From: Seison nebaliae | Taxonomy: Eukaryota | Assembly: GCA_023231475.1 (NCBI GenBank) | Contig: JALJEE010002904.1 | Span: 1-57,382 of the forward strand | DNA length: 57,382 bases | Direction of reading: 5' to 3' | Part shown: piece after piece, positions 2,552-55,083 of the stretch | How the letters are laid out: every line of letters begins with the position of its first letter | Numbering within the stretch: the stretch's first letter is position 1 | Notes under the pieces: model-generated | What the model was told of the DNA's origin: nothing | The model's input: the letters and a program-made list of their open reading frames with translations, nothing else | The model's database searches: none | Position numbers and translations under genes: made by a program

Positions 2552-2964
2552 ATGAATTCTTTAAAATTGATAGTCCTCTCAATTTCACTTATTCTGTCGT
2601 TTTCGTTGATCGAAGCGAATATTTCCGATGTTCCACCAGATGAAAATCAAGTTGGGAATATGAATCAAATAAATTTTATTCTAATTTTATTTTAGATTGA
2701 CCCGATCAAGGTAACATACCCACAGTTGATTCAAGGACCAGTTAATATATTTAATTATATCCCAAAAGTTAAATGTTCAATTTCCATCAGGGTAAGGGTC
2801 GCGGATGGTTTAGACGAGCTTTTCGCAAAATAAAAGATGGTATAGGTAATGCGTGGAAGTTTTTAACTGGAAAGAAGGCTTCTTGGAAAATCGAATGCAA
2901 TCCTCTTAAAGACAAGAATTGTTGCTGGCCATGGCAATTCCGTTGCATAAGAAATGGAAAATGA
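2552..2964 (+). CDS. Secreted prepropeptide, candidate antimicrobial peptide (105 aa, 3 exons)
   Basis: Exons 2552-2650, 2696-2740, 2791-2964. Signal peptide MNSLKLIVLSISLILSFSLIEA, acidic pro-region, GKGR, then cationic GWFRRAFRKIKDGIGNAWKFLTGKK and a 4-Cys tail. Confidence 0.7.
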
Positions 2965-3361
2965 AAATTCATGATTATTATTGGATGATCACATATATAC
3001 ATAGTTCTATGTACTCTCTTGAATTTTAACCACAAAATTAATAATCATCATCGTCAACTACTTATGTCTAAACATTCCTTTGGAGCTACTTTCTAAACTG
3101 CAACTTCACCTTTGAAACTAAAAATGTGATAAAAAAATTTTTTTCGACAAGTATTCCACAAAAGGTAATGTTATATTATTATTACTATTATTCAGAAAAT
3201 ATCTCTATTGTGAGTATAACTCAAATTTAACTATTTTTTTATGAAAAAAATGAGTCTCTAAGATTTAGTCGATATGGACTCAAAAGTAAGTTAGAAAGAA
3301 TAAAAATGATAAAGTAATACTTTAAAAATATTTTGTTAGTTTTGAGTCACCAACTGAATTG

Positions 3362-3499
3362 TCAAGTTGCCTGAATTGAAAGAATTCGTAAAACCGTCGA
3401 ATAAAATAAAGGAAGCTGCTTCATTTTTTTCCAATAATCTAAAATCGGTTCGTCCGCGAACAAGTTGTCTTTTTCATATTCATCATATTCTGCACACCA
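3362..3499 (-). mobile_element. hAT-family transposase C-terminal dimerisation domain remnant
   Basis: Translates DEPILDYWKKMKQLPLFYSTVLRILSIQAT*, matching the hAT pattern dpLdwWk...P.l...a..iLsipat; truncated by a stop. Confidence 0.5.
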
Positions 3500-3978
3500 A
3501 CAAAAGTGATTCCATTACATAAATTGTGTACAAATACCTCACAACTTGTCAGTATCATTTGACTTCCTTCTTTTAAGTTTCATATAATATGGTATATCTC
3601 TTTCGGAACAATTCACTTCATCAACATTCTCTATAATACAACATGTAGTTCCTATATCAGATAGTTTGGCAACATAACATTATAATTAATTTATAATTAT
3701 AATAAGTTTGGAACATTCACATAAAGAGTTCGGATATATTTTAAACGATTTTTTTTAAAGTTTGAACCGAAATGTAAGGCTCTTTGTAAGTCTAATACGG
3801 TTTGATTATCTTTAATGCTTATTATATATATAAATTATATTATATACGCTGGTAAATAGGGTAATGAAAGATCCAAGAAAAAAATTCTTCTCCTTGAAAA
3901 GTAACATTACTTCCTTTTCTTGATAAGCCAATATAACTAATCTCGATTAATTCTGTTACTAATTGGCAAAATTTTTAC

Positions 3979-4050
3979 GGGCTTGGCCGGGGATTGAACC
4001 CGGGACCTCCCGCACCCTAAGCGGAAATCATACCACTAGACCACCAAGCC
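3979..4050 (-). tRNA. tRNA-Pro (anticodon AGG)
   Basis: 72-nt cloverleaf GGCTTGG...CCAAGCC-C; anticodon arm TCCGC-TT AGG GT-GCGGG; T-loop GTTCAATC; downstream TTTT. Confidence 0.95.
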
Positions 4051-4401
4051 CTGTTGATCAGTTAATTTATTGTAAATTGTACCATAATGTAACAATTTAA
4101 CAAATTTTTTACTTTGTTAATATTTCTATTATAAAAAAAAGAATATCGTTTGAATTCTACACGACAAATTCCGAATTTCCGTAATCGACTTAATTTCAAA
4201 AAAATATAACACAGAACTAGAAAATTGGTTTTTCTGAAAAAACTGCGACCTCCCAATAAAATTGGTTAGTATATTCGTTCGAAAAGTAGCCGTGATTTAT
4301 TAATTATTTACCTCTCACAAAAGCATTTTCTTCCTCTTTTTTGTAGAAAAAATGTAAGAAGAGTTAGATGAAGAAATGTCTATTATATACTTAAGGACAT
4401 A

Positions 4402-4473
4402 TCCCATGTGGTCTAGGGGTTAGGATTTCGCCCTCTCACGGCGACGGCCCGGGTTCGATTCCCGGCGTGGGAG
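4402..4473 (+). tRNA. tRNA-Glu (anticodon CTC), copy 1
   Basis: 72-nt cloverleaf TCCCATG...CGTGGGA-G; anticodon arm TCGCC-CT CTC AC-GGCGA; GTTCGATT T-loop; downstream TTTT. Confidence 0.95.
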
Positions 4474-4731
4474 AAAAATTTTGCGGTTAATTTCATTTCA
4501 ATAATTCGCGTTAAAATGTTCATTTTCCCACTTTTTCTCATATTTTATCTCGGTCATAAATCGTGTCAATCAAGCAACATGGCACTATAATTGAACCATG
4601 TAAATAATAATTAACGACAGTTTATTTATTCTGAAGAATGAAAAAAGGCTAATTTTTTAAAATTTCATTCTCTCAGTAAGAATTAAGGTGAAAACAATTA
4701 ATCGAGCAACATGTCGAACATTGTGAAATAA

Positions 4732-15368: not shown

Positions 15369-18300
15369 ATGTCAGTAACTTACAGAGGAGGATGTAACAA
15401 TCGAAATCTTATCCTAATAACAATTTTTCAATTATGCAAAATTTCTGCACAAACATCTTCCTTCCGCTCTTATGCTACTCTGGAAGGCGACGTCATGATT
15501 GGAGCACTATTCTCAATTCACGATCCACCAACAACACCATCACAACGATCGGATCGACTTTGTTCCTCTACAATTCGAGAACAATATGGAATCCAACGAG
15601 TGGAAGCGGCAAGAATGCTTTGGAAAGAAATCAATGATCCGATCAACGGAATTTTGAAATCACAAACTGGATTTACAATGGGAATTGAAATCAGAGACAC
15701 TTGTTGGTTTTCATCAATCGCTTTGGAGCAAGCCATTGAATTTATTAGGAATACTTTAATGACAATTAGAAGACAACCGTTAACGGTTCGACAGAAACGT
15801 TTGATAGAGACTCGATTATTCACTCGATTAACACGCGATATTCGAATGAATATGGGGAATAATGATATGAAGCCAATTGTTGGTGTAATCGGACCCGGTT
15901 CTTCAGACGCGACGATTTATGTCCAAAGTCTATTACAATTATTTAATATACCTCAAATTGGATTTTCTGCTACATCGTTGGAATTGTCAACGAAAGAAAA
16001 ATTTCCTTATTTTCTTCGCGTTATTTCGTCTGATAATATGCAAGCACAAGCTATTGCTGATATTCTTTATCATTTCAATTGGACTTATATTTATGCGGTT
16101 GGGACACAAGGTTCTCTTTTTCGTTTAAATTCAATTAAATTTAAATTCATTCTTTAAATGAAAGGTAGTTATGGAGAGAAAGGTATCGAAGCACTTCAAC
16201 ATTATGCAAGTGAAAAGAATGTCTGTTTAGCGAATGCCAATCAAAAACCATTGATTGTTGATAGTGCCTCATCATCGAAAGTTTACGATGAAATTATTAA
16301 GAAAGTTCAACAACAGAAAAATTGTAAAATCATCGTTTGTTTCTGTCAAGTTACTGATTTTTCTCAATCAATAAATAGAATAATAATAAAACGTCATTAA
16401 GGGAGAAGCGATAACGAAATTGTTGGAAGCGAAAGAAAAACTGGAGGATAAAGGACGAAATTTTAAAATTATCGGTTCAGACGGTTGGGCTGACAGATTG
16501 GAACTGATTAAAGATTTTGATGAAGCTGCACATAATTCTATATCTGTTAAAGTCACTTCGGCACCGGTAGCACGCTTTCAAGAATATTATTCAAGACTTA
16601 AACCTGAAATAGTTTCACCAATGGAGAATCCATGGTTTAATGAATTTTGGACACAGAAGTTCAATTGTACACCAACTGACACTAATTGTAGAAGTTGGAG
16701 AATTTCTGTTTATTTTTAATTATTATGAGAATTTAAAGAAAAACAATTACCCGAAATCTCTGCAATGGATCCCAAACTTGGTTTTGTTATGAATGCCATT
16801 CTAGCAATGGCTCATGGCTTGAAAAATATGCATACCGTTTTATGTAAGGAGAAAGGGAAACCATGTGAACAGATGCAAGTAATTAATGGTACACTATTGA
16901 GAGATATGTTAATGAAAGTTAATTTTGCTGGTGTTACTAATGATATGATACATTTCGATCCAAACGGTGATCCACCAGGAAAGTTAATTCGTTATTCTTA
17001 TTCGATAAAAATTCATAACTTTTCTAATTATAACCATGCTGTTAATAGATATGATATTTTGAGTTATCAAAGTCAATCAGATAAGTTTTCGGATAATTAT
17101 TCAAATGGAAAAACTCGTAATAAGAGATTAGGACAGTACAAATTGATAGGTGTTTGGGACAGTCAACTACCAAGAAATTATCGATTGATTCTCAACGATT
17201 TCATTCGGAATTTAACGGTAATTGACGACATTAGTTTTAGTCGTTGTTCAGAAGAATGTAAATTTGGAGAGAAAAGAGTTTAAATTAACTTTCTCTCATA
17301 TAATTCCTTTTAATTTCATTTTATACAATTTCTTTAATTTTCTTCTAATCGTTTTGTAATGGATAGGTAGTAAGTGAAGCGAAATGTTGTTGGTCTTGTG
17401 AAGAATGTGAACGGGACGAATATTTGGAAAATTCGTTTACTTGTAGAAAATGTCCGATCGATCAAATCCCTCATGTAAACATGAAACATTGTATAAAACC
17501 GAAGATAACATACTTGCAATGGCATGATGTTGGAGCGATAATCTCTCTAATATTTGCAACTTGGGGAATCATTTTATCATTATTCATCGCCATCATTTTT
17601 GCAATTCATAATAATACGAGTATTGTCAAATCGACGACGAGAGAACTGTCTTACATAATTATCGGAGGAACTTTCATTTGCTATATTTGTACTATTTTCA
17701 TGTTAGCCGAACCACATCCATTCTTATGTACGATAAACCGCAGTCTACCATCAATTGCATTCAGTATGATTTATGGTGCGTTAGTCACTAAAACGAATCG
17801 AATACTTCGCATATTACAAGCTTCGAAAAAGATACGAATGAAAAAATTGAATTGTGTATCATTGACATCTCAAATCATTATCACATTATTCATCATTTCC
17901 ATAGAATTGTCCATCATAGTTGTAGTACTCTATATCGAACCACCAATCGTCCATTATCGAATGGTATTTGGAAAGAAGAATACCATCAATAATGAAATAA
18001 GTGCGAACTTATCAATCCCATATTTCCATGACGAGAAAATTATGGAATGTAAATCTACTAAATTTAGCGTTCTCGTTCCATTATCATTCGATTTCTTCCT
18101 CTTATTCATGTGCACTTTATATGCAATTAAAACTAGAAATGTCCCCGAGAATTTTAATGAAGCCAAATTTATCGGATTCAGTACTTATACTACTTGGGTG
18201 ATTTGGATTGCTTTCATCATCATTTATTTCACCTCAGATAACAATAAAATTGTTACATTATGTATCTGTGTCTCATTGAGTGCATATGTCGTGCTCATTA

Positions 18301-19364
18301 TTTTATTCTGTCCAAAATGTTATATTATTCTATATAGACCTGAAAAAAATCAACGAGCAGCATTCGCCACAGCCAAAGGTGTTCGATGTCACATTGGTGC
18401 AAGTACAAGTAACTTAGCTAACAATTCAACAGTTCCCCATCAATCAAATTATCTTCATATCAGAAAATTATCATACGATTCGAAATTATTCAGAAGTACA
18501 TCATTAAAACGGTTTTCTTCCTTTTTTCATAAACAAAAATTTTTCATTCCATCATCAATTTTCAGACCTATCATTACCTCATATTCGGCGAAAGGATCTT
18601 TACAGAATTTTAAGAAGAAGAATTTATCATTGAGTTTGTTAAAATTATTTCGAATATATTTCCAAAAAGAAGAAAAGAAATGTGCGGAAACAAAACCGGT
18701 AACACCACGAAGATCACACACGATAAATCATGCTTTTGTTAATATAATTGAACGATCGAATTCTGTTCAGAATCCTTATTTTCCCAAACAGAATAATACT
18801 ACACAATCCTTATTAACAAATACAAAATTGCCAATTATACCAATTCGACGAAATTCAAGTGAGAGTCGTTTACAACCGATAACTAAATCGATTCAAACGG
18901 AACCGACCTCATTATTTGATAAATTTATACACATAAATTCTGAAGATGATGATTATGTCGATCGAAGTAATAGTTTCGACACATATCCTAAAGTCTATTC
19001 ACAAGGACAATTGTATCGTCTGAGCGAATTGAGTAATTTACCAGACAGTGAATTAATTCAGTTGAAAAATATAATGCCAAACAAACATCGAGGTAGATCG
19101 TTCGATACGACTACCATCGAAAATGATATGACATCGTCCGTCTTTAATAATTCTTTCATTGAACATTATCCAAAAGCGAAAAGGAAAAGTCATTCCGTTC
19201 GTAAAAATCGTAAATACCAACCATCCAGGAATCAGGATTTACTTACATCAATTCTCCATATTCATCCTGCTACCGATAGTTCCATCGACATTCTCAATGA
19301 ACCAGTTACCTTTTTTCTTCTCCTACTACAAATTATTCTTATTTCAATAGATGATTTTCAATAG
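15369..19364 (+). CDS. Metabotropic glutamate receptor, group I (GRM1/5)-like class C GPCR
   Basis: Venus flytrap motifs QYGIQRVEA, GPGSSD, IPQIGFSATS, GSYGE, CFCQG, IGSDGWADR, DPKLGFVMNAI; Cys-rich CCWSCEEC; 7TM with TRNVPENFNEAK. Introns 16111-16164, 16350-16401, 16694-16738, 16983-17048, 17278-17366; exact 3' end uncertain. Confidence 0.93.
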
Positions 19365-20375
19365 ATTCTCTGATCATTGTACAAACACTTCCAATACTTT
19401 GAATTATGCGAGAAAGTATAGAACTTAATAAGCGATATCTTCCGATATTCCGATCAATTCGACAATACTCATTCAACTCATTCCGGTAGAATTACCCTTC
19501 GTACCTCCGATTGAATCTGAACGAATAACTGAAACTTTTTATAAATTTTGTTGATAACCAATAAAATATGGTAAATCAAATATTTCTTTTCTAAATTTAT
19601 TATATATAACATATTATATTATAAGATCAAATCCCCTCGAGGTAAATTAAAAGGAAAAAAAATAATCGGACAAAATTCAATTTTTTTTAAATGCCCATAA
19701 TTTTCTTCAAATAACATTCTATGCGTAAAGGAGCATATCGTTAGATAAATATATACCTCTTTCTAATAATCCTAACTCTCAGGCAAATAAATGTTAAATT
19801 CGGTCTCAAATGATCGATTAATTAACAAAGTTAATTTTTCTCTATTTTTGAGATTCGAAAATCACATTTTAAGTGGTTAATCTTAAAGAAAAGTTTAATC
19901 TAACAATTGCGTAAGTAAAATATTCGATTTCATCATGAAAAAACGATACAGAATAAAAAGAAAAATTTTTTAATTTTCATTAGTTACCTAATTATTGAGC
20001 ATCTTTCGAAAGCGGTTTTTTTGCATTAACTAAGAAATTTTAGTGATTAATTAAATTTTCTCACACGGACGATTTAGAAAGTTTATTTTTTCGCCTTTTT
20101 AAACATTAAAAAGCTATATGTAGAATAATCTCGGTTATTCTCTGCTATAACTGATTGATGAAAAATTATTTAATAATTTTTATTATAATTATGAATATAA
20201 TTATATAAATATAAAGCTTAAATGTGAATCAGTGAATCGGAAGTTTGAACCTAATTGGAATTGTATTAAGAAGGAAAAAAAATAAAGAATAATGACCTTT
20301 TACTAATTGGAAAGTATAAAAATTAGCTAATCCTCAAAATAAGAATTAATACACTTCTCTAACAAAAGTGAAGAT

Positions 20376-20823
20376 ATGCAGGATGAGCAAAATTCAAGGA
20401 AAGCAGCAGCTCTTGAAAGTAAAAAGAAACGTATTTTCTCGAAAGAAAGTTTAAATTCTTATTATTTACGATGTTCACGAAGAATATTTAGTAAAAAATA
20501 TGATGACGGCATTTGGTGACCAAGCTCCACCTAAACCAGAAAGTGTGGAATTGATCGAATGCATGACAATGGATTACCTTAAACAAATGGTTCTAATTTA
20601 TTCTCAATTTTTCATTATTCATTCAAATCAACAGATCCTGAAAGCAGTTGAAATTAATGGACATAATCGAATTACGTTAGACGATGTTTTGTTCGTTGTC
20701 GCTAATGACGTACCAAAATATACTCGAATTAAAGAACTATTAGAAATTAGTGAAAAGATCCGTATGGCTAAGGCGATGATGGAGAAATTGGATGATGCTG
20801 ATAATCAACAAATACCTAAATAA
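20376..20823 (+). CDS. TAF13: TFIID subunit 13
   Basis: KKRIFSKEIKNMMTAFGDQAPPKPESVELIE...DDVLFVVANDVPKYTRIKELL; introns 20449-20491, 20590-20634. Confidence 0.88.
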
Positions 20824-23706: not shown

Positions 23707-23738
<32 letters not shown>

Positions 23739-29048: not shown

Positions 29049-29080
<32 letters not shown>

Positions 29081-29184
29081 CATAATTTTTATTATTGTTG
29101 TTGTCCTTGTAACTACTTTTATTATCACTATTATTATTATTATCATTATTTTCATTTCTATTATTATTATTATTATTATTATTA

Positions 29185-29223
<39 letters not shown>

Positions 29224-36400: not shown

Positions 36401-37857
36401 CTGAATATTCGGAACAACAAATGAATCCCCCCATAGATAACCATAACCAGGCCTTAAAGCCCGCCGATCATTTTCGAGAAAGTAGTCCCGGAGATAACCA
36501 ATTCGATAACACTCAACCACCAAATAATAGGAGAGAAAATCCATATGACAATAACCGGCCACAAAGTAATAGGAGAGAGAATCCATATGACAATAACCGA
36601 CCCCAAAGTAATAAGAGAGAAAATCAATTTGCTAATGACCGTCCCCAAAGTAATAAGAGAGAAAATCAATTTACTAATGACCGACCCCAAAGTAATAGAC
36701 CGGAAAATATTTTTGATAATGACCGACCACAAAGTAATAGGTTAGAGAATTTAATTGATAATGACCGACCACAAACGCATAGTAGAGGAAATGCAATTGA
36801 TAATAATCGACCACAAAGTAATAGGAGGGAAAATCCACTTGACAATGCCCGACCACAGAGCAATAGTAGGGGAAACCCATATGATAATAACCGACCACAA
36901 AGTAATATAAGAGAAAATCCATTTGACAATGACCGACCGCAAAGTAATAGGAGGGAAAATCCATTTGACAATAACCGACCGCAAAGTAACAGTAGAGGAA
37001 ACCCATATGACAATAATCGACCACAAAGTAATAACAGAGGACCAAATCGACCAAATAGTAGAACCGGCCAATCACCGTCAAGTTTTCCAAAAAATTTAAC
37101 GAGAAGTCATAGTGACAATGATAGAAATTATGGAAGTAAGAACATGAAACCATCAAGTAGAAGTGCATCTGCTTTTCCTATACATCATCCGAGAAGAGGT
37201 ACAGAAGGTCAAAAGCCAAAAGCCAGGAGTAAATCTGCTTTCATTAATTCACAAACAGATCAGGAAAATGCATTACCATCAACCGCACAAGACATTTCCA
37301 GCGATTTTTCGAACAACCCATTAAATGAACAAAACCCTTCTAGAACACCAATGAGGAATCCAAGATGTTCAAATATTTAAATTTATTATGTCTTCTGTTA
37401 ATTCACTTTCTTAGATCCCAATCGTCCATTCGTCCCACCTCTCCGATCAGCCATGCCTAGAACTGAAACAATGTCTTCCGAAGACAATAGTTCTACATTC
37501 AATAGGAATATAATTAGAGTTTCATTTTTAATTTTCACACTTTGTTTTTGTATTGCATCCATTTCTTAGCCGCACTATATCCCTCATCGAGGACTTGGGA
37601 AGAGAATGGGAGGTCCTGGTCGAGTTCGCATGTTACACAATCATCCAAATCAAATGTTGAATACGAGAAATCTCGGGGTACTTTCACCCAGGACGGCTAG
37701 GGCTCAAATTCCTGGAGAATATCAAATGCGGGCATACTACCCTCCACCAAGAATGGGACAACCTAGAATGACCAGCACAAGTCCTCAAACAAAAAAAAGG
37801 AGAGTCGATATGCGGGGGAATACCGGTCGACCACCGAGACCTATTCCCCGAGTGTGA
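33404..37857 (+). CDS. Large low-complexity orphan membrane protein (basic N-terminus, hydrophobic hairpin, Ser/Arg/Asn/Pro-rich tail)
   Basis: ORFs 33404, 33748, 35476 and 37606 separated by short AT-rich GT-AG intron-like gaps; SRKT repeats, hydrophobic segment near 33940-34070, 14-aa repeats; later junctions not fully verified. Confidence 0.55.
36529..37032 (+). repeat. Coding 42-bp tandem repeat, 12 x RRENPYDNNRPQSN-like
   Basis: 12 consecutive 14-aa units in ORF 35476-37380. Confidence 0.9.
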
Positions 37858-39107: not shown

Positions 39108-41377
39108 TTAAGCAATCGTTCCGGAAATCCATATAGTGCTTTCAATTGCATTTTCACAATTTGGCAGGTACTTTTTTACGGGAAGGTTGGTTGTGGTAGT
39201 CACCGACAGTGCACCACAATCTACAGCATCTGGTAATATGCTGTCACCATATCTTATAAAATAGGAAGAATCCAATTTAAAAACCTAAATAACAAATGAA
39301 TATGATACATATTATGATAAAGTATGAAGATGTTGTGGTTAACTTGAACGTTGTAATAATTTCCAGCTTTATAAAAATGACCTTGATTAATTCCTGTGCA
39401 ATTATTTTTGAATTGTTTACCTTCTACTACTCCCGTATGAAGGATGTAGTGATAAGTATAAACGGATATTACCATACTCGTGTCGGTTATGTCCTTTCCT
39501 AGAAGTCGAGCATACATTCCAATCAGTTTAACTTTCATAGATCTTGGCAGATCTTCATACTTTACAGAATGGGAAAATAATTCGTTTACTCCCATTTTTG
39601 GGAAATTTGGATTACCCGATGCTAGTGCTAAATTTCTTTCGAAAGAACTGAAAGCGGCAGATTCGAAAATTTCAACAGTTGTTGAAGTAGAAAATTTAAT
39701 ATTTTTTCTTGTCACTACAATACGGGATATTCAGGTAATTTGATGAACATATATTAGAAATATAACTTGTAACATGGTCATTAATAATCTGATGAAAATC
39801 ATTGTAACAGAAAGGAATGGAAGGTCCGTAAGGAAAAGTAAAATCTAGATCTTTCTCTGCATTGAACAAGTCAGGAGTTTCTGATTCTAAAAATATAAAT
39901 CATAAATAAAAAGTTTTATGGAAAAGGATAGTATTTAACGTGTGTATTGAACAAAAGTATAAGCAGATAAGTCTGACGTTGATTTGCATTCAAGTTTACC
40001 GTTACAACTGAGTAAATATCAAAAATTGACCAGTACAAAAATATGCAATAGCACTAACAGTTTTTGAGCAGCTGCTAAGTCTTGTAAGTATGTTGCATCT
40101 CCTGGATCAGCAGTATATAAAAACCCCAAAATGTATATTTTCCTATTAACGTAACACAAAAACAAAGGAGAAAAATTAAATGAACTTCGTCCCTTTAGGG
40201 ATAATGAACCCTGTTGCAGCTGTTGCAAGCTTCTCCAGGCCGCTAGTGCTCAGTGCTTCCGTATCAGTTGTGACCTCATGATCGGGCACTTCAATTTTTT
40301 TCATTTTACTTTCATCTGGCGGTTGGCATTTTACAAATCTCTCAATTAGCTTTTCTTTGCCCTCTAAAAAATAAGACAATTTATTTATAACTCTAATTAT
40401 AATAATTCTTGAAAAAAAATCAACCAAATTTCTTCTTTTCAGCATCAACTTTTGCTTGCATTTCTCCAATATCAACTGGATTATCCAACAAATTAATTTT
40501 AACATAGAAAATTATGGAAGAGAGAACCAGGTTTGTTTTCCTTCAGATCCGCCAGAATTTTATCCAATTTTTCTTTTAAATAATTAAATACATGATATTC
40601 GAAGGCGAATCTTAACCAATTTGTTCATTTACTGTAGTATCCGGTTGCCGTTCTTTTTCAACCTTTGCTAACACTGTAAAAGGATGGAAGATAATTGTTT
40701 CGATTAACACGAACTCTCATCAAGTTTTTTTTCTTGTGCCTTTAAGCCCAGTAAGCGATAGAAAGCATTTATTCTTTTAGCCATTACCTCCGCACATAGA
40801 GTACTATTGAGGACTAAGAAATTGAAATAATGATCGGTTTATATAATTTTCTGTTATATAACTAACTTGTGCCCTTTTGTGTCCAACGTTTATTAATTGG
40901 AACATTTCTTATGTCTCTTACTATGGTTTTCATTGTAACCATACCCCTTCTGAATACTAAATAATTCACAAATCAGATGATCGCCAAAAAAACTATACTT
41001 CTAACATTTATTGTCAATATATCTTCTGGATCGTTGAAATTCCTGAATTTCACTGGATACCAGTCTCAAAAGCGTTAGATCCATTTCTAGAAATATTCAT
41101 TATTTCCTTATTTACAGGTTTCCTAACTGTAATCTTTGAAAGATTTAGAAAAAATGATAAATAATTAAGGAAACCTCGACATGAATATGATTCAAGTTTC
41201 TAAGGATTGGTGAGGAATGTAATATTTTTAAATGAACGTAAGTTAACTTCACTTTGTTTCGGATAAGTATTTGCACCTAAAATATAAACCAATTTTTCCG
41301 TTAATAATATTCTAACTTGTTTCATACCAGATTCCTACGAACAAGATTGATAATAACATAAATTTTTCATTATACAT
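39108..41377 (-). CDS. Multi-exon orphan secreted protein
   Basis: Signal-like MYNEKFMLLSILFVGIWYETSAN; many short exons between GTT..AG introns including parts of ORFs 40176-40505, 40019-40228, 39254-39715; full splice path not verified. Confidence 0.4.
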
Positions 41378-42187
41378 CTTATTTTCCATAAATGATTATA
41401 CTACTTGTAATACTACCGAAATATCAGTTTTTAGTCGTAGAAGCTTATTTATTTATAGGACTCAATTCATGAAATATACGTGAAAACTTTCTTCGAAAAG
41501 TTTTGGAATCCCAAAAAAGCTTAACACGTTTGTTTTATAAAAGTGATTCATGTACAATAAACGAATGTCAGTCAATATCATTCATAAGAATTCTTCTAGT
41601 TATTCCGATGGAAAAAAATATTTAATTTAAAATTCAGAAAAATAGACAAACTTGAGTTTTTTTAATGGAAGGAAACATGATTTATTCATTTTAGTGGTGT
41701 CCAAACGATAACAAGAAGTTATAAGAAAAAAACGATTTGATTTTAAGAGGGGAAAAAATCCAGATTGTCTTTTTCGCTTTCTATACATTCACTTATCGTT
41801 CTATTTTGGCAAAAATCAGACATTCTCCTTTTATAACGCTATTTTCGCCTGTACCACGTTGAGGCTACAAGACAGTTTAATGAAGCAGATAAGTGCTACC
41901 CATGTGATATCAAGAATTATTAACAATTATCAAAAACAAAAATTGAAATGAGTTATAAATTATAACTTATAATTAACTAAACTTTATAATTTAAGACTAT
42001 GTTGAAGAAAGCCACAAACAAATGCATTATATTCTACATATATTATATATAAATTCGAAACTAAAAACTCACAGAATGTGATCGGGTGAAAAATACCGTG
42101 GGTAAAATATTTTTTGAACGAAATCATTGCTTACCTAATAGAGCACCAAACTTGTCCAATTACATGCAACTCAAAGAGCATATTCTC

Positions 42188-44708
42188 CTATTCTTTGTAT
42201 TCTGTCTTCCCAAGTTTAACGGATTTAAGCAATTTCCTGCCTGTCCATATATTTGATACGATAAATAATAATTTGCATTCTATAAACAATACGAGAATCG
42301 TGAAAGAATTTATTTTTAAAATAAAAAATGAACTAGATAATTTGGCAATTTCTTCACACATCGCAATTTCGTCTCTTGTTATCCCACCGACAACCATTAG
42401 AATTAAATGTTTCGATGATTCAACAATGTTATCTTTAAACGTAATGATATCCAAAGTATTCTCAATATTGGCTGATTTGAGACTGGTGTGGAATTTTTTA
42501 ATTCTCTTTTCATCTCCTACTACATTTTCAAGACATCGACCAATGAATGGGAAATGGTATATGGGAAAATTATTCAGTGTTTTGCCGTTAGGTGTATTCT
42601 GAATGAATTTAATCAATTTGAAAATTATTCAACAAATCAACGCAACCAACCAAATTGAAATAGTTTCTAATAATTTGTTGGAAGGAAAATTTTTCAGATA
42701 TTGAAGTTGATTTCATTTGAGCTCCTAAGCGATCGATTAATTTCCAATCTTTATCGAAATCTCCGATAGATGATCTATTAATAAAATTTAATTCGAATAA
42801 ACGATCCCATAGGAATAATCCTCCGATTCCATATGACTAAATAAAATGGTTTATGTCAATAATTGTGATATACACTGATTGGAATTGAACCTGAATAAAA
42901 GAATTTTTTAATTCCTTGTAATTGGGAAGAAAACCATTCACTATCGATACGATTACAATTAATTGAATAACATAATATTCGTTGATCTAAATCGGGCAAT
43001 ATTCGAATAAAAATATATGAATGAATAAAATGAGGAGTAACTTGTCGATGCATTAATTGGGTGATATAAGTAAAGAAATAATGGACATCAAATTGATGAA
43101 AATTTGTTTGAAGAATTGTCGTTAAAATTTCTTCATATTCTTTCAAATTAAACTCTTTAAAATTATTAATATCTTCTATTATTGACACATCTATATGTAT
43201 TTCCGATTTATTTCTTCCATCAATATTTATAAATTTATCTAACGTAGACTGGTACATTTCTGTTTCAAATTGACCTGCTTCAAATCATTCTGAACGAACT
43301 CTTTTAATTCTGCAACTTTTTTAGCTTCATCTTTTTTCTTCAAAAATAATATATATTTATATACTTCAAATATTGATGTTTGAAACTTTGTGCAAAGAAC
43401 GAATTTCATTCATTTGTTCTCGGACAAACTGTAACGAATCATTTGGAGATAAGTATTGAATATGTTGGAAGAAGAGATCATTATTTAATGAATAAGAATT
43501 ATTTGTTCCTTTCCCACTGGTAGACGATATCCATTCATCCTTCAGTGACATTCGACCGCAACATATACCATAATGTTCGTCAATTACTGTACCATATGTG
43601 GATGGTGGTTTAAAAAGAGAAAGTAAATCCAAATCTTTGAAAAATATAGTGGAATGATAAAGAAATGTTAATTGGAACCTCGATCAACAACTAATAAGTG
43701 ATTGAAGACTGATTGAAATTGAGGAATTTCTCCTTTCAATTTCGTACATAATTCATTCAGATGAACGGCAGCTGCTCCAACAAATGATCGACGAGAAAAG
43801 TAACCGAATAATTGTTGGAGTTGAATAAGCACATCACTTATCTCAACCAAATCACAATTCCTCATCTATTCATTCACATCAAAATGATAATGAAATGAAT
43901 GACTAACATTAAATGTTCCGTTGACGAAATGGTCAGGAAGTTCCATCGACAAAATATTGGAATGAATAGGAAATAATCGAATAGAAATTGAATCAAGAAT
44001 AATTTCATCCGGTCGCAATTCGTAATTTCCTGAAGAAGATTCGTGATAACGAAGAGAACTCTCGTTCAAAATTCGTAAACATTTCTGAGACTTTAAAGAA
44101 GATTGAAAGAGTGTGTGTGTATGTGTGTGTGTGTGTAAAATATTGGGAAACCGGTCTGGGAATATAAGCGAGTGCGAAATAATTATTTAATTCTTTTTTC
44201 GATTCTAAATTCTTCGATTTCTTCTTGATCAAATGTTGAATATATTTCACAATTAGTTCCGTATAATCACAATTCTTATCAGCTAGGAAAATATAACTTG
44301 AAAAAAATATTATTGAAATTATAGTCATTCATTAACTGGTCATTAACTTAAGATAATAAATATGAAAATAATAATAACAGAGAATCTTTTGTTTTGTAGT
44401 CGAAATCGTCAATGGAATTCAAATTAATTTCATGGAAATATTCAACTCCAAATTTCTGTTGATAAATCAGAAATGAGAATCTTTTGAAACAAATTAAACT
44501 TTGAGTTGTTGCACGTTAATAATCGTTTGGATCGAAGCCATCAGACGACGATTCATTGACAGATGTACCGTACAATCGATATGGTTCAGATTTAACTGAA
44601 ACGTTATATCTTTTTTTAAATAGCAAATTATATTTAGGAAACTTTTTTAAAAAATTCTTCAATCATTTGAAAACTGAATCGAATAATTTCACTAATCTCC
44701 ACGTTCAT
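42188..44708 (-). CDS. VPS33: Sec1/Munc18-family protein, Vps33-like
   Basis: PIHSNILSMELP, LLVVDR..DLLSLFKPPSTYGTVIDEHYGI, LNNDLFFQHIQ, LMVVGGITRDEIA, SNIWTGRKLLKSV; multi-exon; start approximate. Confidence 0.75.
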
Positions 44709-45243: not shown

Positions 45244-47455
45244 ATGTATTTACTGTGCGTTGGATTAGCTTTAATTATCATCTTCCATTCAACCTTTAGC
45301 AGACCGATCATTGGAAGTTGCTTTTAATTTTTTCTCTTACTTACTCTAGAACTACTTGTAGTGTCAAAAAGTCAAGTAATATACCAACAATTCGAAGTGA
45401 ATGAAAATGAATTAGATAATTTGTCGATGCATTTGGTTTTCGGTGTTCTATAGTTCGTACTTTTAAAATTTATTGTCCCTTATTCATTTCTGCAGCGATG
45501 AACCGATTTCAATTATTCATTCGGAAACGAATACTCCGAGATATGAAATTGAGACACCGAGTTCGGGTTATTTGAACAAAATTGCCATATTGAAAAGCGA
45601 AGATTTTATGGACAACGCTTTTACTTCCTTCCGTCTAAGAATTCCTGTATGTAAACTATCAGACAATAGATTTCATATTAAAGTTTCTCTTCTACGAATC
45701 TTGTTGTGATACTCGATTTATTTACCGATTCTCAGATTTATCTTCCGACAAAAGGTGGTCGGACACATAGATCCAAGAACGAAGCCCGATTCTCACAAGA
45801 TTGTCAAACCTTGAGAGAAGTTAATGAGAATATTCAAATGGTGGAAATTGTCATAGAAGCTGTTAGGCTTATGTTAAATGTGAGAGTTTACATAATTTTA
45901 AATTAGATCGAAAATGTCGATGACTTGAAATTTGTGGAGGAAGAAGAAGATCGTGTTCGTGTGGTTATATTACTTGTTACGAAAGACAATCAACAGCAAG
46001 TGAAACAAATGGTACAAAACCATTTATTCAATGAAGAGAATGCTGGTGAATTGATTATTGGAGACGAAACTACAACAACCACACCATATCCACAATTCAT
46101 AGAAATGACAACAACTCCACCGCAAAAGAAATTAAAAGATAAAGTTATCGAGAAAGTTGTCCATAGTTTCATTAATCATATGTTACCGTGTTACTCTAAG
46201 AAGAAGGTAAAAAATTGTACATATCAGACTTTTACTTTTCCATCGACCACTTCCACAACTTCCACTACCACTACTACAACATTAACCACAACCATGTATT
46301 CTCCAATTATTTTATCTACTACCAGTACATTAACATCGTCGACGACCAGTACAACCACAACTACCACTTCCACATCAACAACCACCATCACAACTACAAC
46401 TACAACGACGACAACAACAACTACTACCACTACCACTAAAACCACAACTTCTACAACAACTAGCACAACAACTAGCACAACAACAACTACAACAACAACT
46501 ACAACAACAACAACTACCACAATGACAACAACAACTTCAACAACCACTACCACAACAACTACAACAACAATAACTACCACTAAACTCCGTACATCGACGA
46601 TTAAAACTACAACTATTCGAACTACAACGGAAACTACTAGTCTCCTCTTAACGACAAGTACAACATCTACAACTACAACCGAATCTACCACAACTACCAC
46701 TACGGCCCCAACATCGTTAATCTTGGCAACGGTTTTACGCATAAGAACTAAATTAATTGGTTTTTGACTTTTACATTCGTTTTTCATCAATTTATTTAGG
46801 CATCGATGTCAATCAGAATGGAACATTTGCTACCACTCGCAAAGTATCAACAAGAAATTTAGAAACAATTGTTAGTATGTCCTAAATTAAAATTTTGTAT
46901 AATTATGATTTTCTGTTGTTATGCTTTCAATTTTACAGTTTCTGAAATCTTTGAAAGAAATTTATTTGAATCCTGCCATTCGAGAATTGGAATTTAATAT
47001 TAATCAAACATCGAAAAAATCTGTTATCACATATTCTTATTGGATCGAAGTAGATCGATTCTTATTGAGTCTTTGGTCAGATATTAGTGAAATGGAAGCC
47101 GCTACATTATCGGAGAGACAGATGAAAATTTCATTGAAAAAAATAATTAATTCGCCAAAATTCTTGAAAAAGTTTATCAAGACTCTTCGGCGACATTTGC
47201 CCGTCGAAAATTTAAGTTTTCCAAATACTCTTCATTTACATTTCCATTCATTTTTCCATAAAAGATTTCCAATCGACAACTTTACATAGAGCTACTGGTG
47301 GCAATGTGCGGAAACTGCGGGAAACTCGTTTCGTTAAAGAGCAAGTACCCAAATGGTACATAGTAGCGATCGGAACCGGTGTCAGTCTTTTATTGGTGAT
47401 GACTGCATGTCTCCTTTGCATTTCATGTTGTGGCTTATCGAAAAAGAAGAAATAG
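45244..47455 (+). CDS. Mucin-like type I membrane glycoprotein
   Basis: Signal peptide MYLLCVGLALIIIFHSTFS, Thr-rich stalk, TM WYIVAIGTGVSLLLVMTACLLCISCC followed by KKKK*. Confidence 0.7.
46240..46710 (+). repeat. (ACN)n poly-Thr coding repeat
   Basis: Long ACA/ACT/ACC runs in ORF 45925-46767. Confidence 0.9.
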
Positions 47456-47512: not shown

Positions 47513-48357
47513 ATGCTCAAGAATCTCTTAAATAAACTCCACAGAAAAAACGTTCTTATTCAAACCAGTTTTCTTTTCAATGTTTTTCTAAAAATTCGTT
47601 CTAATTAATTTATTAATTTTTTTTTAGTTTCAAGAACTTTATTTATTCAAACTCAAGAAACTCCAAATCCGAATAGTTTGAAATTCTTACCAAATCGATC
47701 AGTGTTGCCTGATGAGTTTGGTGCGACGAAAGATTTCCAAAATGCACGAGATGCTTCTCAATCGCCTTTAGCCGAGTCTGTTTTATTTCCTCTCAATTTT
47801 TTCATAATTTTTTAAGGAAAATATTCGAATTAGAAGGAGTGAAGAGTGTGTTCTTTGCGAACGATTTCATTACCGTTACCAAAGATGATGATGATATTGA
47901 TTGGAAGATAATGAAACCGTTAGTTTATGGGATTCTGATGGATTTTTTTTCATCGAACGAAATCGTCATCAACAAACGAGAAGTGGACAGTGAATCAGAT
48001 GTTCAAATAGAAAAAGTGGATTTGAGTGAAGAAGACGAAGAGATTTGTAAGATGATCATCGAATTATTAGACACGAGAATCAGACCGACTGTCCAAGAAG
48101 ATGGTGGAGATATTCGATTTATCGGTTATGAACATGGAGTCGTCAAATTGAAATTAGAAGGTGCTTGCTCCACTTGTCCTTCATCCATGGTTACATTGAA
48201 GAGAGGAATACAAAGTATGTTACAATTCTATATTCCCGAAGTACAAGGCGTCATGCAAGTGGAAGATAGTGATGATGACGTCAATTTGAAATATTTTGAA
48301 GAAATGGAAAAAAAATTGAGAGAAGAAAGATCGAAAGATAATAATGATCTTCAATAA
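47513..48357 (+). CDS. NFU1: Mitochondrial Fe-S scaffold NFU1
   Basis: [60 protein letters not shown]; introns 47568-47627, 47776-47816. Confidence 0.95.
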
Positions 48358-48362: not shown

Positions 48363-48980
48363 TCATTTTATTTCCTCCTCAATCTTTTTATCCAATTTAT
48401 CGATACTCATTTTCGTTTCCTCAATTTGCATATTTTCTGCACGATCATTCACTCGATCGATTAACTCATCTATTTCCAATAATGTCGCTTTCACCGATAT
48501 CAAATATTGACGAATATTCATCGTTACAAACACGCTTAATGATCGAACATCATTCACAACATCTTCATTCCATTTCGCATATTGTCCAAGTATCGTTTCC
48601 CGAAAACTTTTACTTGGTTGACGATCTGAAAAAGAAAAATTTGAAATTTTCTTAAAATTTTAAAAATTAGTTATTGTGAAAAAACCTTGAAAGTCATCGA
48701 TACTGGTCTTTCGTGGAAGGAAATCTTTATAAGGTTTCATTCGTTCCAATCCGTCAATTGGATCCGCTCCCATTTTCTTAATATCGTTCAAATATTTCTG
48801 TGGTTGAAGAACGGATTTAAGTGCACCCGCTCCTAAAAGAGGAAGTAAGAAACGTTTATGTCTTTCATGTGATGATGATGATGATGATGAATTACTGCAG
48901 ACGAGTAAACGGAAGATAAGAGAAAAAAAGAAAATCAGAATCATTAGAATTAGAAAAGAAAATGATTTTTGAAAGGACAT
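48363..48980 (-). CDS. Small secreted helical orphan protein A
   Basis: Hydrophobic N-terminus, RHKR site; intron 48626-48685 joins ORF 48660-48980 to ORF 48363-48557. Confidence 0.6.
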
Positions 48981-49646: not shown

Positions 49647-49777
49647 CTGATGATGGTAAAATTTCAGGAAAGAAAAAGTTTTTTCGAGAGAAAACAAAAG
49701 AGAAATAGAATTTCTCTATAATTTTCTTATTCTTTCTTATTCTCCTTTTCTTCTTTTCTTCCTAAAATTCTCTTATA

Positions 49778-50488
49778 ATGAATTGTCATTTTATATCATT
49801 TCTTCTTCTTTCAACTCAAATTTATTCGAGCGAATGTTTCGTCAATTTTTTCGCAAAAATGTTCACAGGCAAATCGTTGACTGAACGTCAGGTTGAGAAG
49901 CAAGCAGCATCAAATGATGCGTTTAAAGATCGTTTACTATCTTGGGTACAATTGATCGATGAAAAACAAAAGTTTCCACATTTTCCATTTTATCGTTATA
50001 AACGGAAATCGAAGAGATTATACACAGTTCGCATCGAAGGTTACCCAAGAACAATATCTGGTCGAGTTGCAAGACACGAATATGAAAATCTTTACTGAAA
50101 TAGTAAAACACATCACTAATCAGCTCAAGTCGTCAAGTGAGACGATTTTTATAGAAGTTCATTTTTTTGAAAATATGAAAATTTTATTTGAAAAAAAATT
50201 TGAGAAGAAAATTAAAAAATTTAACGAATAAGTTGTCTTATTTTATATTTCCAGATGACGAGAGTTACCGAACAATCGATGGTGATGATTAAAGAATCGT
50301 TGGAGAAGGTTTTGGCGGAAGCTCTCGTGCTCACAAAAGACAAAACGGATAAAGAGTTGAATAGAGAAATGAAGAAAAAAAATAAAATTTTAAGAGAGTT
50401 AATTTTATTCTCTTAATCAATTTCATTTTTTATTTTTAGTGCCGTTCAACTTGTCGGACAGAAACGATTCAATGAGACACAATTGTAA
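49778..50488 (+). CDS. Small secreted helical orphan protein C
   Basis: Signal MNCHFISFLLLSTQIYSSEC; 4 exons in frame via GTT..AG introns (first 49972-50014); ends QKRFNETQL*. Confidence 0.55.
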
Positions 50489-50500: not shown

Positions 50501-51421
50501 TTATGTTAAAGTTGTATTAAGTTCACTGGTTGAATGAGTTTCATTATTTTCCGTTTTATTTGATAAATCTGATTTTTCATCAACATTCTCATCTTTCTCT
50601 TCATTCGTTTTGTGATTCTCTTTATTTTCGTTCCTCACTAAAACATTCTTTGAAGGATAATGATAATTCGATTGAAGATTGTTGTTAGTTGTCGAATTCG
50701 ACATTTGATGATTGGGCAATAGACAAGTGGTAGAGGAAGGAGATGGTGGAGAGAATGGAGTGGTGACGGGCGATAATAATAAATTGGGAGTACATTCATG
50801 AAGAAGAATAGCATTGGATGGTATTTCATTTCCATATATCGGTTTTGGTAAATTATTCTCTTTCAATTGTTTATTCTCTTGAATTGTTGATGGATTTTCC
50901 GAAATAAAATTTTTATTACGATTTTGAATAGGTGGTGGCAATTGATTGAAATTTGAATAGGCGAATTGTGGATTTCTTCCCACCAGAATGTGGAGCATAT
51001 TACTGGAAGTCAATCGTTGACAAGCAGTTGAATGAGTTATCATTTGACAATCGGTACCGTTAACTTGAAGGATTCGGTCGTGAACTCTGAGACCTGAACG
51101 GAAAGCCGGTCCATTCGGTTGAATTTTCGTCACATAAATTCCCTTTTAAAATAATAAAATGAATAATTTAATAATTAAATAATATTGAAACATGATCAGA
51201 ATAAATTGTTCCTTCGAAATTCTGATCTGATCCACCTCCGATACTGAAACCGGATGTGAGAACTGGTTGTCCATTGGCATTCAATCGGATCTGTCCATTC
51301 GGTAATCTAACCGGTTCTCGTTCTAATTGTACGGAAACCTTAAAAAAGAAAGAGGATGAAAAGGGAGTGAATGATGAGAAAAAGAAGAGGACGTACGAAC
51401 AATTTGACAATTATATTCCAT
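50501..51421 (-). CDS. TAX1BP3: Single-PDZ protein, TAX1BP3/TIP-1-like, with C-terminal extension
   Basis: GFSIGGGSDQN..GIYVTKIQPNGPAFRSGLRVHDRILQVNGTDCQMITH; introns 51339-51400, 51143-51191. Confidence 0.75.

Positions 51422-52124: not shown

Positions 52125-52125
<1 letters not shown>

Positions 52126-52160
<35 letters not shown>
52126..52160. repeat. (TC)n microsatellite
   Basis: tctctc run upstream of GOLPH3. Confidence 0.9.
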
Positions 52161-52162
<2 letters not shown>

Positions 52163-52365
52163 ACTCTTCTCCTCCTTCTCAACATTTCTCTTTTCTCTTC
52201 CTCGCCGTTACGTCTACTTCGTATGACGATGATAATTTAAATTTTTGCTTTTATTAGAAACATATTGAATATTCTCTAAAATTTTTTTTGAAAGACAAAA
52301 AAAATAGAGCAGTTTCCGCTCGAAACATTATCAAAAATTTTCATAAATCGTAATTTTATGCTGAA

Positions 52366-53362
52366 ATGACGGAAGTGGGCGGACTTAAACGACGGAACGT
52401 CGCCAGTAACAAAGATAATCAGAACAATGACACTCATATTGATGATGATGAGAGATCGAGAGGAATGGAAGTCGATGAAGATTACCATGACAACGACATA
52501 ACGAATTCCGATGAAGAATCTGATAAAAGTACAAGACTCACTTTAATGGAAGAGATCTTATTACTGGGATTAAAAGAGCGAGAAGTTTCAATTTTTTAAT
52601 TTTCTCCAATTCTCATCTCTCAAATTTAACAAGGGTTATACATCGTTTTGGAATGATTGTATTTCATCGGGATTGCGTGGTTGTATTCTTCTCGAATTGG
52701 CGATAAGGAAACGAATCGAATTGGAAGGAACGGGATTGAGACGTCGAGCATGTGTCAGTCGACGGATAAAAGTCATTAATTCCGAACCGACAGGTGATGC
52801 GCTTTTGGACGAAGCATTACGACATATAAAAGTTAAATTTAATTTTCCGTTCAAATATTTAAATTATGGAAATTTACAGATTACGAATCCGATCGATAAT
52901 GTGCCGAATTGGATCGAATATCTGAGTGGTGAGTCGTGGAATCCGTTGAAATTGAGATATCAATTGAAGAATGTTCGTGAACGAATAGCGAAAAATCTGG
53001 TGGAGAAAGGTGTGTGCACAACAGGCAAACAGAATTTCGTCATTTTCGATTTGACCACACATCCCGTCAACAATTCGACGATGAAACAGAATCTTGTACG
53101 GAAAATTCAAGAAGCCGTTTTGACCAAATGGCCCGGTGAAGCACAACGAATGTCTAAGCGTCTATTGTGTCTGTTGATGATGGCACATTCGTCAGATGTA
53201 TTAGAAAATGCATTTCAATCTCTCAACGATGTCGATTACGAATTGGCTTCGAAGAGAATGAGAGAATTACTTAATTTGGAACCTGATCAACAATGCACGA
53301 TAAAACCGAACGATGGCGTTTGGCATTTAATGTGGGCAGTTATTGCAACATTCCTCAAGTGA
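52366..53362 (+). CDS. GOLPH3: Golgi phosphoprotein 3 (Vps74/sauron)
   Basis: GLKRR, RLTLMEEILLLGLKERE|GYTSFWNDCISSGLRGCIL, WIEYLSGESWNPLKLRYQLKNVRERIAKNLVEKGV; introns 52585-52633, 52832-52879. Confidence 0.97.
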
Positions 53363-54055
53363 ATAATAATCGATTATGAAGGAGAAATGTGTCTGATTAT
53401 TTCATCTAAATTTCACACGAGATTTGACACAAATGAGAGACAATTTCTTTATAGATATACAGTATTTTCTTGTTAAATAATGAATATTGTAATGGAATGA
53501 TGAACAGATGAGAAGTTTCATTTTTCTCCTGTAGCGTTTCGTTTAGTCGTCGAAAATGACGACCATTTTCAATTCATATCGTTTAATGAGTTTTACTTCA
53601 TCTCTTCTCAGCATTTGTCTGACGAATTTGGATAGTTAACAGTCATCTGCTTGAGAACAGTCACAACTTATTTATTTGGACCAATTTTTTATTTATTCAT
53701 TCGATTCCATCCAAAAAAAAAACACCTGCACATTCTTCATCTTTTTCACTCATTCATTTCATTACAATATTCATCTGCACAATAAACAGTTTTGATATCT
53801 AATCACTACTCTCATTCCCATACACAACAGTCACATAAATATCATTCGATATTTTTTTCCGACGGAAGAAGATAATTATGTGAGATAAACGAAAAATATC
53901 AGAATTCTCCAAACAAATCTCTCTCTCAAAAAAAAAGAAAGATTATTCATATTTTTTCTCCATTATATTTATCTTCTCTTATTATCATCTCTTTATTTAT
54001 TTGAAATTAAACAAATTGAAATTAAATTCCAATTTCAAAAATTAAATATTGTTCC

Positions 54056-55083
54056 TTAAATATTATTATTATTCCTCCATAAAATCAATGTTGTCAATAG
54101 ACCTAAATGACGCATCAAATAAATGAGAATTCCTTCCACCACACACATGGTTCGATCACTCATCATTAATAATTGATGAATGGAATTTCCACCAGAAGCG
54201 TCACCGTTTTCTTTCATCGATTTCGTCTTTTCTTTATTTCCATCCATTTCACCATTTCGCTCTCTTATTCGAATATCGGCGCAATTAACGAATTGTTCTT
54301 GTTCGTCTGCACAACCTAAACAAGATTTGCCCGTCGTTTTTGATGTTCCCCATCGATTTCCACAATCATATATCCATCTTAGTACGCATCGTTCGCACGT
54401 AACTCCTTTGGGCAATTTCGCATAAACGGTGAAAGTTGTCGTATTTTGACTAGGAAGCCAATATCGTTTACTCAATTTTTTAGTTGGAGGTAATTTAATT
54501 TTGAATAATTTGGTGGAACGATTCTTTTTTCTCTCTCTTAACGGCATCAACGGTTGTTGATTGAATCTTCCATTTGAAATTTCTACGTTATGTTTCCATT
54601 GTGATGGAATTATTTCATGAGCGTAAGGCGGATATAAGTAGAGGGGATGCTTCTTTAAACACGATTTAGTCGCCTCCTTCATGTCCCCAGTTAGAGGACA
54701 GATATTGAACAAGAAATAACCACCATGATTAGCTGTAATCATTACTTCGATTTTGATTATCGAATTCTCACGATATGTTTTCCCGATAATTCCACTCGCA
54801 AATTTTCCTGAAGAATTTAATTATTAAAATTTAAGTTATGTGGAGAACCTCCATACTCATGATCTCGTTTATCGTCAAATGCATCACCACATAAACCACA
54901 ACGACCTTTATTCTTCTCCCATTGTCGAGCGAAGCCTCCACAGTACAATTGCATATCGTCATAATTCGCCGCCGTTTCATAACCATATCTCCACAAAGAA
55001 TTCCGTGGAGGTGGATTAACTAAACGTCCATGACAAATGACATAATCGATAATTGTTATCAACACTATAGGAATGGGAAGCAT
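54056..55083 (-). CDS. AA15-type lytic polysaccharide monooxygenase (chitin-binding type-4 domain)
   Basis: Signal peptide then HGRLVNPPPRNSLWR, CGG, CGLCGD, TANHGGYF, CERCVLRW, QEQFVNCADIRI; intron 54808-54848; hydrophobic C-terminus. Confidence 0.9.

Follow-up and report, generated by a model that had tools for sequence, protein, structure and literature searches.

The question raised by this stretch of the Seison nebaliae genome (GenBank assembly GCA_023231475.1, contig JALJEE010002904.1, positions 1 to 57,382) is whether its introns start with GTT instead of the usual GTA or GTG, and which component of the splicing machinery would then read them. Seison is a tiny marine animal of the Seisonidea, inside Rotifera/Syndermata (PMC8351084). 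The whole stretch was analyzed as one 57-kilobase (kb) window, which is 30% GC and densely packed with animal genes; all the introns described here are gene-model predictions from DNA alone. As claimed in the initial annotation, GTT introns were found on both strands, in 80 of the 81 introns of a curated set (43 on the plus strand, 38 on the minus strand) and in 71 of the 78 introns placed by a parser blind to donor base +3. We consider this GTT-donor feature very probably genuine, and the splicing machinery likely reads intron starts by an altered code.

The analysis was anchored on TDP1, the gene in which all ten introns had been proposed to begin with GTT:

30878..32764, plus strand: TDP1 with an N-terminal PBZ finger; 10 GTT-AG introns; supported by a public protein model, human TDP1 alignment and homologue-profile ranking
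30917-30958, 31026-31067, 31203-31253, 31351-31389, 31478-31520, plus strand: TDP1 introns 1-5
31649-31690, 31932-31982, 32136-32183, 32300-32353, 32647-32699, plus strand: TDP1 introns 6-10

The TDP1 exon query matches at 100% identity a public protein model, P0122 (473 residues, "hypothetical protein SNEBB_006039"). When P0122 was mapped back onto the window with any intron ends permitted, we observed 10 junctions, each with a single possible GT-AG placement, and the intron started with GTT in 10/10 cases and measured 39-54 nucleotides (nt). The same protein aligned with human TDP1 (E=2e-67) without gaps over most junctions. In addition, all GT/GC-AG pairs that keep the frame and lie no more than 60 nt from an intron end were scored against a homologue profile built from 57 of the 119 listed homologues, the Seison protein being left out. 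The model intron was the top spliced option at 10/10 junctions and the top option overall at 9/10; for intron 2, which is in frame and lies in a variable linker, retention outscored splicing (424 vs 417 bits). GTA, GTC, GTG or GC alternatives existed at 7/10 junctions and were beaten by at least 8 bits. The protein cluster of P0122 has no second member and therefore no transcript-derived copy. The predicted TDP1 protein has a short N-terminus with the PBZ zinc finger (PF10283) directly before the catalytic domain, like many invertebrate homologues.

The blind parser combined coding potential, intron length and an acceptor matrix, scored all GTN donors equally and was run on 19 gene regions. 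Its final count was 71 GTT, 4 GTA, 2 GTC and 1 GTG donors among 78 introns. A crude version had given 51/63 GTT and a self-trained version 71/82, which became 71/78 after one gene-end correction that dropped 4 introns; retraining with a donor matrix gave 76/79, a circular value. Of the GT sites, 40% are GTT, both across the window and within gene spans; among GT sites inside introns that are not donors, the share is 58%. Compared to backgrounds of 40%, 46% and 58%, the proportion of 71/78 was significantly higher (P=4e-21, 4e-17 and 1e-10, respectively). When GTT was disallowed, the score dropped in all 16 genes that still parsed, from about 1 bit (two genes) up to 80 bits, and 3/19 genes were left unparsed. 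The parser is noisy, since it recovered 7/10 annotated TDP1 donors, chose a different GTT for one and missed two in-frame introns.

As a control, the same blind parser was applied to L072, a genomic contig from a metagenome that resembles the window in intron length and in GTT background (270/630). This contig is probably bdelloid, because it clusters with Rotaria at 99/95 support (bootstrap not fully settled). Its 25 donors comprised 17 GTA, 6 GTT and 2 GTG (P=3e-10 vs the window). Since the control is GTA-dominated, the parser is not biased to GTT and the fixation of GTT is not rotifer-wide. Donors of L072 are also weak, with A in 13/25 and G in 9/25 at the fifth intron base (+5), and G in 10/25 and A in 9/25 at the last exon base (-1). 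Rotifers may share a relaxed donor, and the 24% of GTT in L072, measured on one contig, hints at a tolerant state.

The curated set, edited by eye with the hypothesis known, contains 81 introns from 18 genes, one weak model having been dropped. Its donors are 80 GTT and 1 GTC; a fair range is 78-80/81 GTT, because the edits at 42873 (GTA) and 41053 (GTG) have no homologue confirmation. About 40 of these GTT introns lie beyond the sets listed in the initial annotation, in 9 additional gene models. Retention is impossible for 72/81 introns (49 frameshifts, 23 stops). The median length is 49 nt, with 39-62 nt in 74/81, and the 18 intron-bearing genes have 3.0 introns per kb, their coding sequence amounting to 26.9 kb for the 81 introns.

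We analyzed the information carried by each donor position relative to background: 0.22 bits at -2, 0.28 at -1, 1.10 at +2, 1.03 at +3, 0.09 at +4, 0.44 at +5 and 0.02 at +6, with almost none at +7. The proposal of a changed donor code is borne out by a +3 position about as informative as +2 and by a bdelloid control dominated by GTA. The usual U2-type donor consensus (+3 purine, +5G) was not observed, a purine at +3 being present in 0/81 curated and 5/78 blind introns. The pyrimidine at +3 is almost always T: GTC represents 1/81 curated and 2/73 blind pyrimidine donors, vs 22% expected under an any-pyrimidine rule (P=3e-8 and 2e-6). As previously noted, the last exon base is mostly A (A 47, G 21, T 9 and C 4 of 81, hence a purine in 68/81); -2 is A in 51/81 and -3 is never G. 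The statement that +5 is mostly not G also holds (G in 22/81), yet G is enriched there when compared with the background within introns (6.3%, P=3e-9), and less strongly when compared with GTT sites in intergenic DNA (51/336, P=0.014). This +5G associates with +4A (14/34 vs 8/47, P=0.023, uncorrected) and trades off with -1G (2/21 vs 20/60, P=0.046, uncorrected). The top hexamer, GTTAGT (8 cases), is the canonical GTAAGT with +3 alone changed, and the residual weak consensus, AA/GTTAGT with the slash at the junction, is in the normal register. In the spliced coding sequence, 20 GTRAG sites are unused, of which 5 follow G.

Concerning the other end of the intron, GT...AG ends are unique in the TDP1 mapping and were imposed as GT/GC-AG by the parser in the other genes. 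Acceptors are TAG in 36, CAG in 26 and AAG in 19 of the 81 introns (e.g., those at 16164, 25757, 27737 and 31982). Several AAG acceptors follow A-rich runs without a pyrimidine tract, and 3' recognition (U2AF) may also be relaxed. No branch-point motif was enriched (YTRAY in 22/81 vs 30 in shuffles); degenerate branch points are frequent in animals.

Homologues or domain matches support a second group of gene models:

15369..19428, plus strand: metabotropic glutamate receptor (mGluR); 7 GTT introns; Pfam, mGluR1 match and frame
16111-16164, 16350-16401, 16694-16738, 16983-17048, 17278-17366, 18512-18565, 19305-19350, plus strand: mGluR introns
20376..20823, plus strand: TAF13; GTT introns 20449-20491 and 20590-20634
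20859..21647, plus strand: PIG-F; GTT introns 21030-21085, 21172-21225 and 21434-21482; Pfam and frame
21939..22584, plus strand: GM2-activator-like ML-domain gene; GTT introns 22032-22080 and 22216-22260
24552..30331, minus strand: secreted fibrinogen-domain gene; 10 GTT introns; blind parser and Fibrinogen_C match
30321, 27985, 27789, 27556, 27321, 27178, 26267, 26112, 25967, 25813, minus strand: donors of the fibrinogen-domain gene
42188..44328, minus strand: Sec1/VPS33-like gene; 9 GTT introns in the curated model
47513..48357, plus strand: NFU1; GTT intron 47568-47627 and GTC intron 47776-47816
50501..51421, minus strand: PDZ gene; GTT introns 51400-51339 and 51191-51143
52366..53362, plus strand: GOLPH3; GTT introns 52585-52633 and 52832-52879; homologue-profile ranking
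54056..55083, minus strand: LPMO; GTT intron 54848-54808

The numbers of GTT introns first proposed for TAF13 (2), PIG-F (3), GM2A (2), GOLPH3 (2), the PDZ gene (2), the LPMO (1) and the fibrinogen-domain gene (10) were all recovered; for mGluR the introns were indeed GTT, but 7 were found instead of 5. In mGluR, exon 1 stops at Pfam position 128 and exon 2 resumes at 129, and the mGluR1 match breaks off where intron 16983 begins; the two tail introns are the least certain of the seven. The alignment of TAF13 with human TAF13 has a 15-residue gap exactly at the second intron (GTT, 45 nt), while for the first the blind parser picked GTA 20431 instead of GTT 20449. In PIG-F, 121 residues cover 104 Pfam profile positions, consistent with an in-frame 54-nt intron. 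The GM2-activator-like gene contains a perfect GTAAGT at 22225, which cannot serve as a donor because an in-frame stop precedes it. Both GOLPH3 introns pass the homologue-profile ranking as done for TDP1. The intron 1 position is common to four animal-like loci (L072, L076, L078 and L080), two of which use GTA, whereas the intron 2 position is absent in L072, L076 and L078; exon 3 carries an unused G/GTGAGT at a site where these three loci have an intron.

Two exceptions to GTT had been reported. The GTC donor of NFU1 at 47776 persists even in the parser trained to favour GTT; it reads GTCTGT, with full +5G and +6T, and is the one curated exception. The probable GTA donor of the fibrinogen-domain gene proved unneeded: 27326 has no open frame and 27400 requires a 161-nt intron, whereas GTT 27321 gives 53 nt. 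With GTT disallowed, the parser found no parse for this gene, whose first coding exon measures 10 nt (30331-30322, minus strand). The Sec1/VPS33-like gene has a weak Sec1 match (E=0.00066) and the parser itself put one GTA at 42873; its re-parse relies on what we take to be a resemblance to VPS33, and a PDB search with the alternative VPS33 exon gave no match.

The remaining models rest mainly on frame continuity or on the parser:

2552..2964, plus strand: small secreted peptide gene; GTT introns 2651-2695 and 2741-2790; frame continuity
22803..24235, minus strand: acidic membrane protein gene; GTT intron 24191-24142; blind parser
33404..37857, plus strand: long low-complexity protein gene; 5 GTT introns; frame continuity
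39108..41389, minus strand: secreted protein gene; 14 GTT introns (curated); frame continuity only
45244..47455, plus strand: mucin-like membrane protein gene; 7 GTT introns; frame continuity
48363..48980, minus strand: small secreted protein gene; GTT intron 48685-48626; blind parser
50255..50488, plus strand: short gene model, low confidence; GTT intron 50398-50439; blind parser

The 39108-41389 gene encodes 515 residues; the parser itself put one GTG at 41053, and Pfam gave no match for the two exons searched. Tiny exons were observed in this gene, with 29 nt at 41276-41248, 25 nt at 41199-41175 and a possible 6-nt exon at 41133-41128 flanked by two 41-nt GTT introns (all on the minus strand). 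The low-complexity gene has an unused G/GTAAGT in exon 1 and a coding tandem repeat of 42 nt in 12.3 copies (36516-37033). The 2552-2964 product is a secreted precursor of 105 residues. It has basic sites resembling cleavage sites, an amphipathic stretch that is cationic and an end rich in Cys and Trp, and gives the impression of an antimicrobial or signalling peptide.

Elsewhere in the window, genes are tightly packed, with stop-to-start gaps of 35 nt (20823-20859) and 57 nt (47455-47513) and convergent stops of two genes separated by 5 nt (48357-48363). Three or four short genes for secreted proteins, of no assigned family, cluster at 48363-50098. Two tRNA-Glu(CTC) genes and one tRNA-Pro(AGG) gene are present at 4402-4473, 7979-8050 and 3978-4051, the similar flanks of both tRNA-Glu(CTC) genes indicating a local duplication. 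A tandem repeat with a 16-nt unit (about 5 copies, 57196-57273) lies close to the contig end, and reading frames are broken in regions resembling transposon debris (800-2200, 3300-3900, 11700-14760 and 38500-39000).

What, then, would read these donors? As in the initial annotation, we infer that the spliceosome is rewired. The best explanation, to which we give about an even chance, is that these short GT-AG introns are removed by an ordinary major spliceosome whose U1 small nuclear RNA (snRNA) has A for the usual U opposite +3. In standard U1, ACUUAC is the sequence that pairs with GUAAGU (bioRxiv 10.1101/2022.06.08.495308). A U opposite +3 would take A as a pair or G as a wobble, which is the usual rule, whereas an A would take U only, which is the pattern observed; the predicted Seison U1 recognition sequence would thus be ACUAAC replacing ACUUAC. 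The U6 ACAGA box could remain unchanged and accommodate +3U through a G-U wobble in the way suggested for Entamoeba, and either U5 loop 1 or another U1 change, opposite -1, would hold the A-rich exon end. Old introns would probably have been converted in place, perhaps via a tolerant stage like that of the bdelloid control. An A partner at +3 is preferred over a G partner because GTC is so rare; if the G of U6 ACAGA chose +3 by pairing, it should accept C as readily as U, and GTC should make up about 22% of the donors. Since +5G is linked to +4A and opposed to -1G, snRNA pairing in the usual register seems to be active still, and two donor classes with such a trade-off have been described by Parker et al. 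2023 (PMC10581693). The unused canonical GTRAG sites also support a changed U1, as does GOLPH3 intron 1, whose position is occupied by GTA introns in two other loci. There is a precedent in Entamoeba, where the U1 ACAAAC matches the GUUUGU donor (bioRxiv 10.1101/2022.06.08.495308). Among the mechanisms first suggested, a base-pairing partner at +3 is therefore favoured, while recognition purely by U5 or proteins is disfavoured by the persisting enrichment of +5G and its trade-off with -1G.

Several points weigh against a compensating U1. According to the available text of the comparative study, U1 is standard despite atypical donors in Thecamonas, five Mamiellales, 69 Saccharomycotina, Giardia and Trichomonas, and compensating U1 changes are reported in Entamoeba and Mastigamoeba only (bioRxiv 10.1101/2022.06.08.495308); the U1 5' end is likewise described as unchanged in Fritillaria (PMC13326754). 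Caution is needed, because most atypical-donor lineages retain a standard U1. With a compensated U1, most donors would form 4-6 Watson-Crick pairs (mean 5.3/9). In the window, no snRNA gene was found with Rfam at gathering and E<=1, only the three tRNAs. The curated set was built knowing the hypothesis, and the P-values linking +5G to +4A and -1G are marginal and uncorrected. As to the GTT pattern itself, an annotation-free test, which looked for a fall in GC following GT together with an AG located 38-60 nt downstream, was weak: at a threshold of 0.2 it gave a modest excess (44/2057 GTT vs 10/1182 GTA, 11/985 GTC and 8/870 GTG), control dinucleotides were equally variable at 0.15 and no peak was seen in the histogram of distances.

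Alternatively, U1 could be standard or dispensable, with +3U set by a protein pocket (U1C, LUC7, PRP8) or an snRNA modification and intron definition aided by U5 loop 1. We hold this as a possible but rather unlikely explanation. It agrees with the standard U1 of most lineages with atypical donors, with the strongly diverged U1C of Entamoeba (bioRxiv 10.1101/2022.06.08.495308) and with Fritillaria, where N6-methyladenosine (m6A) patterns and U2AF are altered rather than the U1 sequence (PMC13326754). The near-zero information at +4, +6 and +7, the A-rich exon end (-2A and -1 purine) and the narrow length range of the introns also fit, but the residual +5G with its links to +4A and -1G does not, and the strict choice of U over C is simply explained by an A partner. 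The near-absolute invariance of one position with free neighbours resembles a catalytic-core demand, and could instead reflect a U6 change, with A for the G of the ACAGA box facing +3 and +3U required at the catalytic stage. We regard such a change as improbable. Few known RNA motifs are as strongly conserved as the U6 ACAGA box. This box covers donor positions 2-6, but Entamoeba retains ACAGA despite +3U (bioRxiv 10.1101/2022.06.08.495308).

Two further explanations would not involve a new code. It appears very improbable that the pattern is an artefact, whether due to T-rich DNA, to the way models were built or to this single region: GTT is already frequent among GT sites, above all inside introns, the composition test is weak without a distance peak, the public annotation possibly comes from a self-trained predictor and one window was covered, but the blind parser gave 91% here vs 24% in a bdelloid contig of similar background (P=3e-10), the GTT ban lowers or abolishes the parses of all 19 genes, and homologues fix junctions of TDP1, GOLPH3, TAF13 and mGluR. 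We give hardly any credence to introners, that is, transposon-derived introns with GTT ends that replaced or swamped older ones in a merely tolerant spliceosome. Nearly all donors do share three letters and the GOLPH3 intron 2 position is absent in L072, L076 and L078; against this origin, which we rejected, similarity between introns was not above shuffles (best 34 bits, shuffles 26-40), no terminal repeat whatever was present at 45/81 junctions, GOLPH3 intron 1 lies at an old, shared position, and the leftover GTA introns expected were not found in the window.

Other candidates were also discarded. Shifted-register donors, GTT-RAG-T, reportedly described by Roca and Krainer in 2009 and needing G at +6, share the GTT start, but +6 is G in 6/81 Seison introns, the background level, vs 22/81 for +5G, so that the consensus is not displaced by one base. 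U12-type introns have a long fixed donor starting RTATCC, which the donor hexamers do not follow. A second intron class at GTAAGT 12143, 13453 and 13657 was rejected, as this region has no coherent reading frames. The suggested loss of METTL16 or SNRNP27K left no sign, +4 not being shifted to U (T in 24/81, under background). The +4U switch of Saccharomycotina associated with that loss is similar in that one donor position went from A to U lineage-wide, but it concerns +4, in intron-poor species (PMC10581693), whereas +4U is depleted in Seison.

In comparison with known systems, Entamoeba has U at +3 and +4, 88-90% GUUUGU donors, a matching U1 (AACAAAC/ACAAAC) and an unchanged U6 ACAGA (bioRxiv 10.1101/2022.06.08.495308). 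Both organisms have +3U in nearly all introns, GT-AG ends and short A/U-rich introns. Entamoeba, however, is an intron-poor protist with +4U and a strict six-base signal, whereas Seison is an animal with 3.0 introns per kb in which only +3 is fixed, +4 is T in 24/81, +5 is G in 27% and the Entamoeba-type GTTTGT is absent from the hexamer list. Like animal U2-type introns, those of Seison have GT/AG ends, a -3 that is never G, residual +4A, +5G and +6T, a U5/U6-type trade-off and at least one shared position; they differ by +3 T, a -1 that is mostly A, no enriched branch-point motif and AAG acceptors (19/81). Fritillaria borealis is also an animal with a genome-wide splice-signal change and the major spliceosome, but 95% of its introns escape GT-AG, in connection with duplicated U2AF and m6A changes (PMC13326754), whereas Seison keeps GT-AG and has one internal position switched.

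We found no report of a GTT donor switch in Seison or any animal, in a search that was thin on subscription journals, and intron databases could hold the logo unremarked. In its accessible text, the Seison genome paper refers to introns in two places and to splice sites in one, with nothing on donor sequence, and its two supplements gave no match for intron, splic, donor or snRNA. GTT donors are not described in the accessible parts of a lamin paper (PMC10125929) and a minor-intron survey (PMC10639083). What is new here is GTT donors in an intron-rich animal with +3 alone fixed, of a kind already known from Entamoeba.

Overall, we tentatively propose, somewhat short of an even chance, that Seison is the first animal with many introns whose donors, in their tens of thousands, have switched in concert to a new base, with a matching U1 (or U6 ACAGAGA) rewritten, the universal GTAAG no longer working as a donor and the mixed GTA/GTT donors of its rotifer relatives representing a transitional state. 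The "coevolution" model ties transformed donors to few substrates, and such donors are described mainly after massive intron loss (bioRxiv 10.1101/2022.06.08.495308). If true, an intron-rich animal with a fixed +3 switch would be a counter-case to this model. With public data, the donors of Seison make it directly testable whether U1, U6 or a protein imposes the +3 rule and by what route thousands of sites in a genome move to a new code, with mixed-donor rotifers as a possible intermediate, and they would have consequences for gene prediction across Syndermata.

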